Position numbers and translations under genes: made by a program
The notes under the pieces: generated by a model
Seen by the model: only the letters and a program-made list of their open reading frames with translations
What the model was told of the DNA's origin: nothing
The model's database searches: none
In this document: positions 55,706 to 62,744 of the stretch, in pieces
How positions within the stretch are numbered: the stretch's first letter is position 1
Layout: every line of letters starts with the position of its first letter
NCBI GenBank assembly: GCA_021735045.1
Contig: JAIPHU010000003.1
Location: forward strand, 304 to 64,303
Origin: Candidatus Omnitrophota bacterium
GTDB lineage: Bacteria; Omnitrophota; Gorgyraeia; Duberdicusellales; 4484-171
Direction: 5' to 3'
DNA: 64,000 bases

Positions 55706-55981
55706 TTATTCAACCTCTATATCTACCCCTTTAATGGCGGGGAAGTTTTGTTTTATTTTTTTTTCTATTTTTCCCTTTTGTAGCCTAAGCTCATAAACAG
55801 CGCTGGATGACCGGAGAAAAAACACTATTTTTTTGTTTGGTTTGGGCTCTATCCGCAAATGTTTTACTGTTTCGGCTTTTAAGGTTTCTTTTAATATTTT
55901 TTTTATTTTTTCGTGTTCTTTTTGTTTCTGTTTGTTTTTTTGTAAATACTTATCAATTATTGTTTTAATGTGTTCTGCCAT
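55706..55981 (-). CDS. DUF721/DciA-like small protein between dnaN and gyrB
   Basis: 91 aa, basic. Conserved position between dnaN and gyrB where DUF721 proteins sit. No recF present. Confidence 0.4.
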   Translation of the reverse strand: MAEHIKTIIDKYLQKNKQKQKEHEKIKKILKETLKAETVKHLRIEPKPNKKIVFFLRSSSAVYELRLQKGKIEKKIKQNFPAIKGVDIEVE

Positions 55982-55983
55982 TA

Positions 55984-57081
55984 TTAAGTTTTCATGGGTA
56001 GAAGAAGATAAATATGGTTTTCTCTTTTTACTACCGCTGGTTTTTCTGTGCCGAAGAAATCGATTGTAACTTCTGGCTCGTTTATTTGTTTTAAGATATC
56101 TATAAAATAGTTCGGGTTAAACTCTATTTCCATTGTTTGCCCTTGATAATTTACCTCTATCTCTTCTTTTGCTTCTCCTAGTTGCGGTGTTGTTTTATAA
56201 ACCATCATCTTGTTTTTTTTCAGGTTTAGTTTAACCCCTTGATACTCTGTTGTTGTTAACAAACCGATTCTTTTTAAAGAAGCCATAAAAGCTTCTCTGT
56301 TTATAGTTAACTGATCCCCTGTTTTTTTTGGTAGATACTGTGAGTAGTTAGGGAAATCCCCTTCTATAGGCCTGGCTATAATTTTGGTTTCTTGAAGATC
56401 AAACTCTATGTTTTTTTCTGAAAAAGACAGATAAAGAGGTTCTTGCCTTTCTTTGGTTATTCTGGCAACTTCTCCCACCGCTTTACTGGGAAGAATAAAA
56501 GATATTTTCTCTTCGACCCCTGCTTGGTTTTTAGAGAAATCTCTGGTTACAAAAGAGAGTCTCTTCCCGTCGGTGGCCACAAGTTTTATTTTGTTTTTTT
56601 CTAGTTCAAACAAAACCCCGCTTAAAATATAATTTACATCTTCATAGCCAACACAAAAAGAAGTTAGCCGGATCATTTCCTCTAAAACTTCTGGTAATAT
56701 TTTTATAGTTACAGCTTCTTTTTTTTCTTGGATTTTGGGAAACTCTTCTTCTTTTAAGGTGTTTATTTTAAACTCAACTTTTCCACACTTTATTAAGAGG
56801 ATATTCTTAAGTTTTTCTAAGGTTACATCCCCTTCTGGAAGCTCTCTGGCGATAGAGATAAACCTTCGCATAGGAACCAGCGCTTTACCCGGGCTTTTTA
56901 CTTTGTTTTTTATATATGTAGTTATAGTGATATCAAGGTCTGTTGTTACAAACTTAATAATATCTTTCTTTGCTTCAATCAAAACACTTCCCAAAGCAAG
57001 AAAATCTTGTTTGGTTGTAGTGGGTCCGGTAACACTTTTTAGTTTCTCTACTAATTCTCTTCTATTAATAGTAATATTCAT
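55984..57081 (-). CDS. dnaN: DNA polymerase III beta sliding clamp
   Basis: 365 aa, three-domain clamp. Position downstream of dnaA. Confidence 0.85.
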   Translation of the reverse strand: MNITINRRELVEKLKSVTGPTTTKQDFLALGSVLIEAKKDIIKFVTTDLDITITTYIKNKVKSPGKALVPMRRFISIARELPEGDVTLEKLKNILLIKCGKVEFKINTLKEEEFPKIQEKKEAVTIKILPEVLEEMIRLTSFCVGYEDVNYILSGVLFELEKNKIKLVATDGKRLSFVTRDFSKNQAGVEEKISFILPSKAVGEVARITKERQEPLYLSFSEKNIEFDLQETKIIARPIEGDFPNYSQYLPKKTGDQLTINREAFMASLKRIGLLTTTEYQGVKLNLKKNKMMVYKTTPQLGEAKEEIEVNYQGQTMEIEFNPNYFIDILKQINEPEVTIDFFGTEKPAVVKRENHIYLLLPMKT

Positions 57082-57177: not shown

Positions 57178-58512
57178 TTATAAGTTTTTAATTTCCTGTG
57201 CAAGGCTGTTAACTGTTGTTTTTAACTTCTCATCTTTAGTTAAAGCCTTTCTTATTTTTTTACAAGCATAAAGAATATTAGTGTGATGTTTACCCCCAAA
57301 AAAACCCCCAATTTCAGGGAGAGAACTCTCGGTCAACTCTCTTGTTAAATACATTGCAACCTGACGAGGCAAGACCAAAGTTTTACTTCTTTTAGCTTTT
57401 TTTAAATCTTCCTTGTCAACTCCATAAAAACAACTAACTTTATCCAAAATAATTTCCGGAGTAACTCTTGCGCTGATTTCGCGAACCATATCTTTTAAGA
57501 TTCCTTTAGCTAGATCAACAGTGATTGTTTTATTTTCTATTAAGGAATAAGCTATAATTCTAACTAAAGCCCCCTCTAGTTCGCGGATATTTGAAGAGAT
57601 ATTTTCAGCAATAAAGCGGATAACTTGGGGGTCAACCTTTACTGCTTCGTTTTCTAGTTTTTTCTCTAAAATTGCGACTCTGGTTTCATAATCCGGAGTT
57701 TGGATGTCAACAACCAAGCCCCAGTTAAAGCGGGAAACCAATCTTTCTTCTAAATCTGGAATTTCTTTCGGGGGGCGATCCGAAGAGACAACGATTTGTT
57801 TATGGTGGTCGTATAAGACATTAAACGTATGAAAAAACTCTTCCTGGGAAGCCTCTTTCCCCGAAAGAAATTGGATATCATCGATTAAAAGAATATCTAT
57901 GTCTCGATATTTTTTTCTAAACTTATCCGTGTTTCTTTGCCGAATAGAAAGAATAAGGTCGTTAGCGAAGCTTTCTGAAGAAATATACTTAACTTTTGTT
58001 TGTGGGTTTAAAGAAAGCACATAATTAGAAATTGCTTGCATCAGGTGAGTTTTACCTAAACCAACTCCTCCATATATAAAGATCGGGTTGTACGACTTTC
58101 CTGGGGCTCGGGCAACAGCTAAAGATGCAGCATGCGCCATTCGGTTTGAAGAGCCAACTACGAAATTATCAAAAGTAAAGCGGGGGTTGAGCCGCAAGGA
58201 TGTTTGGGTTTTTTCTCCAAAGCTTTTATTAAAAGAACGAAAGATTTTTGTAGTTTTACTTTTAAGGATACCAGGATTTACCCGGAACTCTATATTTATT
58301 TTCTTTCCCTCAACTTCTTGGGAAATCTCTTCTATAGAAGAAAGATAGTTGCTTTCTACCCAGTTTTTAAAAAAACTGTCAGGAGCCTCTAAAACCAGAT
58401 TTCCTTTAGAAGCTTCTTTGAGCTGTAAAGGAGATATCCAAGTATCAAAAGAAGTTTCTCCTAAACGTTCTTTAAGCTTTTTTTTACAATTTTCCCAAAT
58501 ATCTTGTTTCAT
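57178..58512 (-). CDS. dnaA: Chromosomal replication initiator protein
   Basis: GGVGLGKTHL Walker A, AAA+ box, C-terminal DnaA-box-binding helix-turn-helix. 444 aa. Confidence 0.9.
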   Translation of the reverse strand: MKQDIWENCKKKLKERLGETSFDTWISPLQLKEASKGNLVLEAPDSFFKNWVESNYLSSIEEISQEVEGKKINIEFRVNPGILKSKTTKIFRSFNKSFGEKTQTSLRLNPRFTFDNFVVGSSNRMAHAASLAVARAPGKSYNPIFIYGGVGLGKTHLMQAISNYVLSLNPQTKVKYISSESFANDLILSIRQRNTDKFRKKYRDIDILLIDDIQFLSGKEASQEEFFHTFNVLYDHHKQIVVSSDRPPKEIPDLEERLVSRFNWGLVVDIQTPDYETRVAILEKKLENEAVKVDPQVIRFIAENISSNIRELEGALVRIIAYSLIENKTITVDLAKGILKDMVREISARVTPEIILDKVSCFYGVDKEDLKKAKRSKTLVLPRQVAMYLTRELTESSLPEIGGFFGGKHHTNILYACKKIRKALTKDEKLKTTVNSLAQEIKNL

Positions 58513-58712
58513 TGACGATTTAACAAAGTTAACAACTTATTCACATTTTTAAGGAATGATTATTTCCTGCGCGGTACCAGAAGTAACCTATTGATTTTGA
58601 ATAACCAATTATACCTCAATAAAATATCTTTGCAACTTTTTTGTAGTTGACACCTAATTATTTTATGCTACAATTTCAACTTACCTGATAGTATATTGAA
58701 TTTAAAAAAGGC

Positions 58713-58764
58713 GATGAGCTATATAAGTATAGTTAATTTTTGATAAAAAGATAACTAAAAGGTG
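58713..58764. repeat. 52-bp perfect direct repeat, copy 1 (promoter/RBS-like module)
   Basis: gatgagctatataagtatagttaatttttgataaaaagataactaaaaggtg is identical at 58861-58912. Copy 1 precedes a 15-codon ORF (58769-58816, MYAFFAAGKHSLAIA) and a complex hairpin (58772-58832). Copy 2 precedes rpmH. Confidence 0.7.
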
Positions 58765-58860
58765 CAAAATGTATGCGTTTTTTGCCGCAGGCAAACATTC
58801 TCTAGCTATTGCCTAAGAGAATATAACGCATCCATGTAATGTATTAGACTCACAAACAGT

Positions 58861-58912
58861 GATGAGCTATATAAGTATAGTTAATTTTTGATAAAAAGAT
58901 AACTAAAAGGTG
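58861..58912. repeat. 52-bp perfect direct repeat, copy 2 (ends at the rpmH Shine-Dalgarno AAGGTG)
   Basis: Identical to 58713-58764. Confidence 0.7.
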
Positions 58913-58919
58913 AAAAAAC

Positions 58920-59057
58920 ATGAAAAAAAATCTAAAAACACCTAGTAATTTAAAAGGGAAAAGAAAACACGGTTTTCGTAAGAGGATGAGCTCGAAAAAC
59001 GGGAAAAAAATAGTAAATCAACGGCGAAGAAAAGGGCGTAAAAAAATATCTGTATGA
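58920..59057 (+). CDS. rpmH: 50S ribosomal protein L34
   Basis: [45 protein letters not shown] matches the L34 consensus. Not in the ORF track (under the length cutoff). Confidence 0.85.
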
Positions 59058-59260
59058 GAAGGGCTGCTATCTTTTTAATCCAGATATATCAAAAACTTCC
59101 CCAATTCTTGCCTACTTCTTGCATATATATCCCAACTTGTTCTGAATATGCTAAGCAAGCTTTTGAGAAGCATTTCTTTTTAAAGGCTTTGGGGTTGACT
59201 GTATTTCGCATCTTACGTTGTAATCCTTTTTCACGAGGTGGGTTTGACCCTGTGAGGTAA
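59054..59260 (+). CDS. yidD: Membrane protein insertion efficiency factor YidD
   Basis: [13 protein letters not shown]...[13 protein letters not shown] conserved YidD motif. ATGA overlap with rpmH. No rnpA between rpmH and yidD. Confidence 0.8.
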
Positions 59261-59262
59261 CA

Positions 59263-60708
59263 ATGGAAAAAAGAACAGTTTTTGCTTTTTTATTGTTGAT
59301 TGGCTTTTTTTTGGTTTGGTCTCAGTTTGCTCCAAAGAAGGTTCCACAAACGCTTGAAGGACAAGAAGTTGTAAGCGAAAGCGTGCAAACGACCCCCCAA
59401 GAGCCTCAGCCGAAAATATCGGAAGCCGGAGAAAAAAGCCTTCCTGCAGAAGGTGTCGCCCTCAAAGAAATAAAAATAAATAACTACTATATTACCTATT
59501 CTCCTCAGGGTGGATATATTCAGTCCATTGCTTTAAATAAACCAACTAATATTCTTCCTTTTCAGAACTTAGGGTACCAATCAGCGAAAAAGGACATAAA
59601 CTATAAAGTTAATGTTGGGCAAGACAGCATTTCTTTTGTTGAGGGCAGTTCCCCTCCCAAAAAATATGTTTTTAGTGAGGATACCATAAAGATAGAAAAT
59701 GTTGCCGGCTCCCCCATTTTATTGTTTTCATTTTCTTTAAATTCAGGAACTTCACATATAAGTAAAAGGTATTTTGAATCATTTTATAGTAAAGATAAAT
59801 CTATCCAAAGAACCCATCCTAAAAAAGTTAAACAAGAAGTTGAAAAAAGAGTAGAATTTGCCGGGGCTAGGAGTAGGTATTATGCAATTAGTTTATTACC
59901 CGATCTTTATAATATTGAATGGAGCAAAACTAAAGAAAGAACAAATCTTTACCTAAATAATCCTTCCTCCACCATATTGCTTTATCTTGGGCCGCAAATT
60001 ACCGACAATATGGAAACATATGGGTTGGCGGGTATAGTTTATTATGGGTTTTGGCATTTTTTGGCGGTAGCAATTATAAAAATACTATATTTTTTCTATA
60101 GTTTTCTGCATAATTGGGGGCTTAGTATAATCTTTCTTTCTTTTTCTACTTATGCTGTGCTGTTTCCTTTTACTTCAAAAAGTACCAAAGCAATGAAAAA
60201 GATGCAAGAGATTCAGCCCTTAATGCAAGAGTTAAAAGAAAAACATAAAGATAATCCTCAAAAGATGCAAAAAGAGACTGTTGAGCTTTATAAAAAGCAT
60301 AAAGTAAACCCTTTGGGCGGGTGTCTTCCTCTTTTGTTTCAATTCCCGATAATTATTGCTTTTTATCAAGTAGTCTTTAGGTTTAGCCGGCTTCAAGGAG
60401 CTTCTTTTCTTTGGATTCAGGATCTATCCTTGCCGGATCGGTTGTTCCATTTGCCTTTTACGATTCCTGTTGTAGGTGTTGAATATTTTAATCTTCTTCC
60501 TATTCTAGTAATGATTTTAGGAATTGTTCAACAACACATAACAGCTTCTTCGTCAAATCCTCAACAAAAAAAGATAGGTTTATTTATGGGAGTATTTATT
60601 GGAATAATATTTTATAAGTTTCCTTCTGCATTAGTTTTGTATTGGTTTGTGCAAAATCTACTCACTCTTATCTACCAAGTCCGTTTGAAAAAAGCCCGCA
60701 CCACCTAA
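59263..60708 (+). CDS. yidC: Membrane protein insertase YidC
   Basis: 481 aa. Periplasmic N-domain plus 5-TM YidC/Oxa1 core (LYWFVQNLLT). Confidence 0.85.
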   Translation: MEKRTVFAFLLLIGFFLVWSQFAPKKVPQTLEGQEVVSESVQTTPQEPQPKISEAGEKSLPAEGVALKEIKINNYYITYSPQGGYIQSIALNKPTNILPFQNLGYQSAKKDINYKVNVGQDSISFVEGSSPPKKYVFSEDTIKIENVAGSPILLFSFSLNSGTSHISKRYFESFYSKDKSIQRTHPKKVKQEVEKRVEFAGARSRYYAISLLPDLYNIEWSKTKERTNLYLNNPSSTILLYLGPQITDNMETYGLAGIVYYGFWHFLAVAIIKILYFFYSFLHNWGLSIIFLSFSTYAVLFPFTSKSTKAMKKMQEIQPLMQELKEKHKDNPQKMQKETVELYKKHKVNPLGGCLPLLFQFPIIIAFYQVVFRFSRLQGASFLWIQDLSLPDRLFHLPFTIPVVGVEYFNLLPILVMILGIVQQHITASSSNPQQKKIGLFMGVFIGIIFYKFPSALVLYWFVQNLLTLIYQVRLKKARTT

Positions 60709-60749
60709 AAAAGATCACTTAAAATCAAAAAACGCTTATTTGGCAAGAG

Positions 60750-61030
60750 GTATTTACGTTTTCACGTGAAAACGCTGCAACCCCTTGATTCTATTAACAT
60801 TTTCTATTTTTACGTGTATCTTTCCAGCTATTAAAGAGGGCTGAAAGATCCATGTGGGAACCTCTACACAACTAGAAAGAAGGAGGCGTTTTCACGTGAA
60901 AATTTTCTTGCTTCTAGATATATGAAAATTTCCACGTGGATATTCTCCTTTTCTTTAGGTGGTGGAGAATATACACGTGAAAACGCTAGAACCCCTTGAT
61001 TTTATTAACAATTCTCATTTTGGTTGTTAT
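60750..61030. promoter_or_regulatory. parS: Cluster of parS-like palindromes (GTTTTCACGTGAAAAC at 60758 and 60888; variants at ~60927, ~60972, ~60850) with two ~40-bp direct repeats, followed by an AT-rich tract (61023-61113)
   Basis: 14/16 match to the parS consensus TGTTTCACGTGAAACA. Immediately upstream of parA-parB. Confidence 0.65.
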
Positions 61031-61113
61031 TTTTTTTGAGTAATTAAATAAAAATGGTTGCAATTCTCATCAAATAGTATTAAAATAAAGAAAATTGAAA
61101 TATTTATATATTA

Positions 61114-61920
61114 TTGATAACAAAAGATATGGGTAAAATAATTGGTATTTGTAATCAAAAAGGTGGGACCGGCAAAACAACAACTGCCATTAACTTTAGT
61201 TCTTTTTTAGGGCTGGCAGGGGAAAAGACTCTTCTTGTGGACATGGATCCCCAGGGCAATGCTTCTTCTGGAGTTGGCATAGATCCTCAAGGTAAAAAAT
61301 CAGCTTATGAGGTAATTTCAGGAGATGCCCAGGTAGAGGAAGCTATTTATTCTACAGATTGGCCTAATTTATCTGTTATGCCCTCAGATATATCTCTTAC
61401 TGGTGGAGAAGTTGAGTTGGTTTCTTTGAACCAGCGGGAACTACTGCTGCGGCAAAGTCTTGAGAAGATTAAAGACGAGTATTCCTATATAGTTATTGAC
61501 GCCCCTCCTTCTTTAGGAGTACTTACTGTTAATGTGTTGTCTGCCGCTGACAGTTTAATTATACCAGTTCAATGTGAGTATTATGCACTAGAAGGAGTTT
61601 CGAAATTGATCGGCACGATTGAGTTAATAAAAGAAAGGCTTAATCCAGGCTTAGAAATTGAAGGGGTTTTGTTGACTATGGCAGATTTTCGAACCCGGCT
61701 TACTTTACAAGTAATAGAAGAAGTAAGAAACTATTTTAAAAATAAAGCTTTTAGCATTATTGTTCCCAGAAACGTGAAGTTAGCTGAAGCTCCTAGTTTT
61801 GGCAAACCTATCTATTTTTATGAATCCGGTTGTGTGGGGGCGAAAGCTTACTTAGAGTTGACTAATGAAGTTGTAGGGCAAGTTCAAGAAATAAATAACT
61901 TTGTTAAGCAGAGAGGTTGA
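61114..61920 (+). CDS. parA: Chromosome partitioning ATPase ParA/Soj
   Basis: KGGTGKTTTAINFS deviant Walker A, 268 aa. Confidence 0.9.
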   Translation: MITKDMGKIIGICNQKGGTGKTTTAINFSSFLGLAGEKTLLVDMDPQGNASSGVGIDPQGKKSAYEVISGDAQVEEAIYSTDWPNLSVMPSDISLTGGEVELVSLNQRELLLRQSLEKIKDEYSYIVIDAPPSLGVLTVNVLSAADSLIIPVQCEYYALEGVSKLIGTIELIKERLNPGLEIEGVLLTMADFRTRLTLQVIEEVRNYFKNKAFSIIVPRNVKLAEAPSFGKPIYFYESGCVGAKAYLELTNEVVGQVQEINNFVKQRG

Positions 61921-62744
61921 TTATGGGTAAAAAAGTATTAGGAAAAGGATTAGACGCTCTTATTCCCAAAAAGAAAAATTCTGGGGGGGACCAATTTGTT
62001 TATCTTCCCGTGGAACAAGTCGAGCCTAATAAATTTCAGCCGCGTAAAGGCATGAACCAGAAGGACTTAGCTGAACTAACCCAATCAGTTAAAGAAAAAG
62101 GTTTTATTCAGCCAATATTAGCGCGGGATATTAAGGGAGGAAAGTATGAAGTTGTGGCTGGAGGAAGAAGGTTAGAAGCCGCTAAGTTGTTGGGCATCAA
62201 GGAGATACCCGCAGTAGTCAGAGACCTAGACAATAAAGATTCCTTTATCGCCGCAATAGTCGAAAATCTACAAAGAAAAAATCTTAATCCAATTGAAGAA
62301 GCCCAAGCTCTTACCCGCCTTAGGGATGAGTTTAATTTTTCTTTAGATGAAATTGCCAAATTTATCAGTAAAGACAAGACAACAGTGGTAAATACAATTC
62401 GTTTGCTTAAACTTCCAAAAAAGATTAAATCGGCTTTAGAAGAGAATCTTATTAACCGGAGCCAGGCCAGGACAATACTTTCTTTTAAAAGCAAGATTCA
62501 GCAAGAAAAAATATTTTATAAGATTCTTCACAAAGGGCTTACAGTAAGAGATGTGGAGAAACAAGCTGTCAGGAAAAACAAAAAAACAAAAGTTGATCCT
62601 TTTGTTGAAGAAGCTGAGCAGCAGTTACAAAAAAGCCTTGGGACAAAGGTAAGAATCATTAGTTCAAAAAATAAAAAAGGCAAGATTATTCTTCATTATT
62701 ATAATTTAAATGATTTTGAAAGAATCATAAAAAGAATTAGCTAA
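61917..62744 (+). CDS. parB: Chromosome partitioning protein ParB/Spo0J (TTG start)
   Basis: GGRRLEAAK ParB box, helix-turn-helix. Overlaps parA. 275 aa. Confidence 0.85.
   Translation: MIMGKKVLGKGLDALIPKKKNSGGDQFVYLPVEQVEPNKFQPRKGMNQKDLAELTQSVKEKGFIQPILARDIKGGKYEVVAGGRRLEAAKLLGIKEIPAVVRDLDNKDSFIAAIVENLQRKNLNPIEEAQALTRLRDEFNFSLDEIAKFISKDKTTVVNTIRLLKLPKKIKSALEENLINRSQARTILSFKSKIQQEKIFYKILHKGLTVRDVEKQAVRKNKKTKVDPFVEEAEQQLQKSLGTKVRIISSKNKKGKIILHYYNLNDFERIIKRIS

Follow-up and report, generated by a model that had tools for sequence, protein, structure and literature searches.

A putative variant parS beside parAB in an Omnitrophota bacterium and parallel changes in its ParB

To our knowledge, parS is generally taken to vary hardly at all among bacteria. 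The closest described counterpart of the locus considered here is the chromosomal ParABS system, in which ParB/Spo0J reads parS (tGTTNCACGTGAAACa) in Bacillus subtilis, Caulobacter crescentus and Thermus thermophilus; the two are alike in the palindromic 16-mer and its inner 12 bp, in the clustering of sites beside parAB at the origin, in the three-domain ParB and in the Soj-type ParA. Noc, a Firmicutes paralogue of ParB, binds the NBS site (tATTTCCCGGGAAATa), and its altered specificity maps to residues 173, 179, 184 and 201. A short inverted repeat multiplied by tandem duplication is also known from sopC of the F plasmid and from comparable iterated plasmid centromeres. At the level of base contacts, Arg173 of ParB hydrogen-bonds guanine 1 of the 14-bp core G1-T2-T3-T4-C5-A6-C7, and in Noc Gln173 reads adenine 1 and Arg201 reads cytosine 6, aided by a permissive Lys179 or Lys184 (Jalal et al. 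2020, PMC7383237). In the mutational scan of that study, Arg173 was invariable in the parS-specific variants, and Ser or Thr at position 201 was compatible with the binding of parS, an A6 site; Arg173 and Gly201 were reported to be absolutely conserved in extant ParB orthologs (PMC7383237).

The window, meaning the whole stretch of 64,000 nucleotides analysed, spans a replication origin region, as indicated by the GC skew, which is negative to ~57 kb and positive from ~60 kb, and by the gene orientation, which flips at the same place. The genes concerned are as follows.

gyrA, gyrB, a 91-aa DciA-like ORF, dnaN (55984-57081) and dnaA (57178-58512), minus strand: gene order left of the skew switch
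rpmH (58920-59057), yidD, yidC (59263-60708), a 420-bp spacer, parA, parB and ndk, plus strand
61129-61920, plus strand: parA, a Soj-type ParA ATPase of 263 aa (AAA_31/CbiA)
61923-62744, plus strand: parB, 273 aa with ParB_N, HTH_ParB and ParB_C domains, the predicted reader of the palindromes

The clustering of palindromes between yidC and parA, described in the initial annotation, is real, for 217 bp of this spacer contain every CACGTG hexamer of the window, four in number (1.28 expected window-wide), at 60763, 60893, 60933 and 60974. The palindromes are origin-proximal, being situated 55-370 bp 5' of parA and 2.2 kb from dnaA. The individual elements, to which no strand is assigned, are listed below.

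60757-60774: site A, a perfect 18-bp palindrome CGTTTTCACGTGAAAACG holding the only exact GTTTTCACGTGAAAAC of the window (60758-60773); predicted high-affinity ParB site
60887-60903: site B, CGTTTTCACGTGAAAAT, whose 16-mer GTTTTCACGTGAAAAT at 60888-60903 agrees with the motif at 15/16 positions; member of repeat families D2 and I4; predicted second ParB site
60928-60943: site C, ATTTCCACGTGGATAT, a degenerate form of the palindrome that departs from GTTTYCACGTGRAAAC at 3 positions; it is the left arm, and site D the right arm, of a 20-nt inverted repeat (I3)
60969-60985: site D, ATATACACGTGAAAACG, with the 16-mer ATATACACGTGAAAAC at 60969-60984; right half-site good, left half degenerate; starts direct repeat copy 2
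60806-60821: fifth element, centred on TACGTG and not on CACGTG

Two claims about these copies had to be corrected. At least two exact copies of the 16-mer had been counted, and there is just one, the second being the 15/16 match of site B. Further CACGTG-centred sites had been put at three; such sites are indeed present as the degenerate sites C and D, but the fifth element has a different centre and the count is therefore off. At up to 3 mismatches the 16-mer gives 5 matches in the 64-kb window against 0.56 expected, and three of the five fall in the yidC-parA spacer. The spacing between sites is irregular (130, 40 and 41 bp).

The motif agrees with the canonical site TGTTTCACGTGAAACA at 12 of 16 positions, not at 14 as had been thought, since positions 1, 2, 15 and 16 all differ; across the 14-bp core the agreement is 12/14, and the inner 12 bp, TTYCACGTGRAA, are identical to those of parS. 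Within the core the difference falls exactly at position 1, where T replaces G, and position 6 is unchanged. The variant consensus is thus (c)GTTTYCACGTGRAAAC(g), with a G one position outward of the substituted base. Canonical parS was not found in the 64-kb window at up to 3 mismatches. Livny et al. 2007 reportedly recognised parS as lying within 1-2 mismatches of the consensus TGTTNCACGTGAAACA, and the best site here is off at 4 of 16 positions.

Each of the Omnitrophota relatives compared (ParB 46-92% identical) has the motif GTTTYCACGTGRAAAC directly 5' of parA, in 1 to at least 10 copies. Seven further loci, reached through ParB homologs that are 87, 81, 79, 62, 59 and 55% identical, have the same synteny as the window. 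The copies in the relatives are distributed as follows.

L001: one copy; a single palindrome and the promoter are kept in a 175-bp spacer
L003: two copies
L004: two copies, both in a ~200-bp duplication that is independent
L006: four copies
L007: four copies
L008: three copies; the genome is complete (1.8 Mb), and dnaA is not within 10 kb 5' of its parAB

Alignment of the window spacer with those of L001, L003 and L004 shows the palindrome as the sole invariant block, followed in conservation by a TTGATT element and the promoter of parA. In ~166 kb of origin-proximal Omnitrophota DNA reached through ParB, all matches to the motif at up to 2 mismatches lie in the spacer upstream of parA, and the same DNA yielded no canonical parS at up to 2 mismatches. 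A prospective test was provided by P0137, a Lys173 ParB of 46% identity picked from its protein sequence alone: its locus has the context rpmH-yidC-parA-parB-ndk with two perfect GTTTTCACGTGAAAAC flanking yidC, one filling most of the 34-bp yidC-parA spacer and the other just 5' of yidC.

Another Omnitrophota relative, L099, has 10 or more variant sites 3' of yidC (1-1000). They include a tandem array of 44-bp units, each bearing one site, of which at least 4.4 units, 98% identical, run into the contig end. This array resembles an iterated plasmid centromere of the sopC type. The window itself has no regular tandem array; in contrast to sopC, it is chromosomal, has a chromosomal-type ParB and shows irregular spacing with one dispersed 48-nt pair, and among the loci compared a regular array occurs solely in L099. 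Local duplication has raised the number of sites, to two good and two degenerate here and to 1 to at least 10 in the relatives.

In its fold and domains, the window ParB conforms to the usual chromosomal type (E = 1e-42 to Thermus Spo0J, 1VZ0; TIGR00180 at 163.9 bits, cutoff 58.45). It possesses the N-terminal LGKGLDALI peptide, a CTP-binding GxRR box and an ENLQR box, and with the Noc model TIGR04285 it scores 197.5 bits, under the cutoff of 315. A residue-level alignment to solved structures gives the following segments and codons for the specificity positions.

Thermus Spo0J: GKARSTVAN and TAGHAR
Noc: GKGQSTIANK..LLKLP and TERHAR
Window ParB: SKDKTTVVNT..LLKLP and NRSQAR
62376-62378, plus strand: Lys152 codon of parB, equivalent to Caulobacter Arg173
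62460-62462, plus strand: Ser180 codon of parB, equivalent to Caulobacter Gly201, the second specificity position

These segments assign Lys173, Thr179, Lys184 and Ser201 (Caulobacter numbering) to the window ParB, which accordingly has Lys and Ser in place of the Arg173 and Gly201 by which a chromosomal parS reader is recognised. The substitutions are not peculiar to this protein. Among 120 Omnitrophota ParB cluster representatives, Lys173 and Ser/Thr201 are each present in 120/120, Gln202 in 119/120, Asp172 in 117/120 and Lys/Arg184 in 116/120. The changes in the reading head comprise Lys for Arg173, Ser/Thr for Gly201, Asp for Ser172 and Lys or Arg at 184. Compared with the known ParABS systems, the locus has T for the conserved G1 with G one base outward, Lys for Arg173 and Ser/Thr for Gly201, and the canonical site is absent nearby. 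With Noc-NBS it shares an altered position 1 and the permissive Lys184. It departs from Noc-NBS in combining A6 (the CACGTG centre) with T1, where NBS ATTTCCCGGGAAAT has A1 and C6, and in its residues, those of Noc being Gln173, Lys179, Lys184 and Arg201. Besides, the window ParB is below the Noc cutoff and is encoded in the parAB operon, and its sites are confined to the spacer upstream of parA.

Taken together, the palindromes very probably constitute parS, the centromere of the chromosome, in a variant form matched to the ParB of this Omnitrophota bacterium and lying 5' of parAB. There is good reason to regard them as ParB sites; whether this ParB also discriminates against canonical parS, which would make it a true new specificity class, is an evenly balanced question. 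Since the spelling of the site and the reading head of ParB are altered in parallel, the two are most likely matched to each other; as a pair they would represent a third natural specificity class, next to ParB-parS (G1/Arg173) and Noc-NBS (A1/Gln173). The initial annotation had proposed that a parS variant changed together with its ParB and served as a loading platform beside parAB, and comparison lends this support through the conserved motif, the absence of canonical parS and the substituted base-reading residues. Judging by the family, ParB dimers would recognise the sites with the helix-turn-helix domain. They would nucleate on sites A and B and more weakly on C and D; ParB might then close as a CTP-dependent clamp and slide onto the flanking DNA across the yidC-parAB-dnaA neighbourhood, as family members do. 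The partition complex built in this way would, by the same analogy, be moved and segregated by ParA. The locus is a variant of the known ParABS kind and not a new kind of system. In the literature searched, no description was found of the 16-mer or of parS in Omnitrophota or Elusimicrobium.

The distribution of the motif was followed by searching 185,579 species genomes for GTTTYCACGTGAAAAC. At least 120 blocks matched, which constitute a sample and not a census, and they were sorted by record title and ParB type. The numbers of blocks among the matches listed are as follows.

Omnitrophota-type: 10 blocks
Elusimicrobiota-type: 39 blocks
Gaiellales / Thermoleophilia-type: 42 blocks
Patescibacteria: 7 blocks
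Scattered singletons: 22 blocks

In all ten Omnitrophota-type blocks among the matches listed, L099 included, the motif lies in the yidC-parA spacer. In the Elusimicrobiota blocks with parAB it is found immediately 5' of parA, a few copies overlapping the start of the open frame, and another copy is often situated ~1 kb further upstream of parA; other blocks, from Elusimicrobiaceae, hold single sites at a distance from parAB, in one case within gcvP, all of this again among the matches listed. These single sites resemble the dispersed parS of Bacillus. The description of the motif as a lineage-specific variant thus holds in that the variant is real, but its range is not narrow: it is phylum-wide in Omnitrophota and also stands beside parAB in Elusimicrobiota. 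Two records, L036 and L081, titled Eggerthellaceae and Planctomycetia, fit Elusimicrobiota and Omnitrophota respectively by ParB type and synteny, and the titles probably reflect mis-binning or mislabelling. In Saccharimonadia, the motif occurs inside valS (L033 at 4848; L041 at 6505; L085 at 3756 and 3825; L080 at 7367), at a conserved position near residue 600-620 in L033, L041 and L085.

The blocks from Gaiellales and Thermoleophilia, of ~70% GC, carry the palindrome cGTTTYCACGTGRAAACg, often paired, with no parAB in the block (L010, L060, L064, L086, L101, L124 and ~36 others among the matches listed). Several of these copies are orthologous and stand ~12 nt from a -10-like box 5' of a gene for an HtrA/DegP-like protease. 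They represent either a third parS lineage or the operator of an unrelated regulator, and their presence at htrA-like promoters without parAB suggests that in some lineages another protein could read the palindrome. The same observation favours a different reading of the window, namely that its palindromes are operators of a non-ParB transcription factor regulating parAB, with an incidental likeness to parS. The window sites stand 80-370 bp 5' of the conserved parA promoter, and each repeat module contains a promoter-like TTAACA-17-TATNTT, which would suit an operator. Such a role is nevertheless very improbable. The relatives differ freely in the number of copies, from 1 to at least 10, and in promoter spacing, a pattern usual for centromeres but not for operators; parA and parB are the sole genes always beside the motif in two phyla among the matches listed, and no candidate regulator gene is conserved nearby. 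In addition, Elusimicrobiaceae sites occur within coding sequence, as in gcvP, the core is the same as in parS, and the head of ParB is altered at exactly the residue that reads the altered base.

The covariation of site and protein was examined against a control of 80 diverse ParB loci from metagenomes, chosen independently of the motif and encoding ParBs 32-42% identical to the query. Arg173 and Gly201 are present in 80/80 of the control ParBs, and three Noc paralogues have Gln/Lys/Arg. The control loci contain 53 sites with the core TTNCACGTGNAA, that is, 106 half-sites, with G1 in 101/106 and T1 in 2/106. In the seven Omnitrophota loci reached through ParB, the relation is reversed, with T1 in 36/36 half-sites, G1 in 0/36 and G one base outward in 32/36. 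Fisher's test on position 1, control against Omnitrophota, gives p = 2.7e-31, a value which ignores shared ancestry and overstates the support, since the covariation goes back to a small number of independent events, a single clade each in Omnitrophota and Elusimicrobiota.

The nearest 150 representatives of 50%-identity clusters from 1.84 billion proteins comprise 141 with Arg173 and 7 with Lys173; P0121, P0153 and P0251 are representatives with Lys173, and P0123 has Arg173 with Ser201. In a rough neighbour-joining tree, the ParBs of Omnitrophota and Elusimicrobiota fall in separate clades, which means that Lys173 probably arose at least twice. The published absolute conservation of Arg173 and Gly201 is contradicted by the lineages of both phyla.

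Residue 173 alone does not fix the type of site, as follows from Arg173 ParBs that stand beside T1 sites: six such ParBs of Elusimicrobiota adjoin mostly variant sites, and the Arg173 control locus L171 has T1-type half-sites. Some Arg173 ParBs may therefore tolerate T1. If ParBs tolerated T1 generally, the palindromes would be true ParB sites read with unchanged specificity, and Lys173 and Ser201 would be neutral. This would agree with the Arg173 ParBs of Elusimicrobiota beside pure variant sites (L035, L043, L051, L077), with hybrid sites composed of one canonical and one variant half (L126, L111, L020) and with the compatibility of Ser/Thr201 with parS in the published scan. It is rather unlikely all the same, seeing that the parS-specific variants of that scan all keep Arg173, that G1 predominates so strongly at 80 unselected Arg173 loci and that no G1 half-site was found at the Lys173 loci compared. 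Among the matches listed, the G1 half-sites of Elusimicrobiota are confined to a nested Arg173 subclade (L111, L126).

A further departure concerns the CTP-binding box, which reads GGRR instead of GERR in the window ParB (residues 80-83, 62160-62171). Of the 120 Omnitrophota ParB representatives, 68 have E at the position of the Glu, 45 have G, 5 have S and 2 have Q, so that Glu is lost in ~43%; it is retained in 80/80 control ParBs. By its position in the motif, the missing residue would correspond to E102 of Caulobacter ParB, and the E102A variant of the latter binds CTP without hydrolysing it and forms a locked clamp (PMC8367383). It can be suggested, tentatively and with somewhat more doubt than belief, that Omnitrophota and largely also Elusimicrobiota constitute a T1/outward-G class whose Lys173-type head rejects canonical parS, and that the GGRR ParBs (~43% of the Omnitrophota clusters) are long-lived clamps with poor CTP hydrolysis. 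The frequent natural loss of this Glu bears on the dispensability of CTP hydrolysis for ParB function.

Because parS has been held invariant and Arg173 and Gly201 absolutely conserved, parS searches based on the consensus would miss the variant site in whole phyla. Its recognition matters for the correct annotation of centromeres and origin regions in uncultured Omnitrophota and Elusimicrobiota genomes. A natural ParB-site pair altered at the very base and residue by which ParB and Noc differ also offers an independent, testable case of specificity evolution, and such a ParB/parS pair, possibly an orthogonal one, could be of use in tools for DNA labelling.

Towards its 3' end, at 61020-61128, the spacer reaches 78-85% AT, in agreement with the AT-rich tract that had been noticed upstream of parA. 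The tract overlaps the parA leader and a conserved promoter.

61058-61086, plus strand: sigma-70-type parAB promoter TTGCAA-17-TAAAAT inside the AT-rich tract, kept in L001, L003 and L004

The initial annotation had alternatively regarded the cluster as part of oriC, with the AT-rich tract as a feature like a DNA-unwinding element; the palindromes would in that case be similar to DnaA boxes. The sign switch of the GC skew in the region and the proximity of dnaA, only 2.2 kb off, are compatible with this, and half-sites such as TATCCACG loosely resemble the DnaA box TTATCCACA (2 mismatches). At the same time, the spacer contains 0 DnaA boxes at up to 1 mismatch, and its 4 boxes at 2 mismatches in 420 bp compare with a window background of 4.4/kb, which was judged to be no enrichment. 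The scans found a DnaA-box cluster neither in the yidC-parA spacer nor in either of the spacers flanking dnaA; the lack of a convincing cluster in the latter counts on the side of the oriC reading. The tract can be accounted for by the conserved promoter and 5' leader of parA. The relatives point the same way: L001 retains one palindrome and the promoter in its 175-bp spacer, the 34-bp spacer of the P0137 locus is essentially the site alone, and in L008 the motif stays with parAB where dnaA is not within 10 kb upstream. An origin in this spacer, with the tract as its unwinding element, is thus unsupported and very unlikely, and the palindromes are better explained as the putative parS. Their location just 5' of two promoter-like elements would allow autoregulation, but does not show it.

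The direct repeats that had been described in the spacer as ~40 bp long are present and measure 48 nt, with 85% identity.

60763-60810, plus strand: direct repeat copy 1 (D1), in which a half palindrome is followed by GCT-N6-CCCTTGATTCTATTAACA; it includes TTAACA-17-TATCTT, which is promoter-like
60974-61021, plus strand: direct repeat copy 2, whose palindrome/TTGATT/TTAACA module is common to L001, L003 and L004

The two copies are 211 bp apart, and the duplicated module consists of a half palindrome and GCT-N6-CCCTTGATTYTATTAACA. Sites C and D are joined by a 20-nt inverted repeat (60929-60983, 90% complementary, 15-nt loop), which as a single strand has a stable fold, with a dG of -21.3 kcal/mol and z = -3.55. 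It has no counterpart in the relatives; for this reason a functional RNA fold was set aside, and the repeat is taken as a by-product of inverted duplication. A terminator scan of the yidC-parA spacer found none. Rfam, at gathering and permissive thresholds, returned tRNAs plus chance microRNA matches far under threshold, from which it follows that the spacer is not a known RNA.

Several minor features of the neighbourhood can be added. The usual gene arrangement is rpmH-rnpA-yidD-yidC; in the window no rnpA separates rpmH from yidD and yidC (58920-59263), and the same is seen in the relatives. The 91-aa ORF between gyrB and dnaN (55706-55981, minus strand) is kept in the relatives, one of which gives a weak DciA (PF05258) match. 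The dnaA-rpmH spacer contains an 81-nt direct repeat (58689-58769 and 58837-58917, 86% identical with a long identical core), which is a doubled rpmH leader and ribosome-binding region, copy 1 being followed by just a 15-codon ORF. Recent local duplications are thus visible in both origin-proximal spacers, dnaA-rpmH and yidC-parA.
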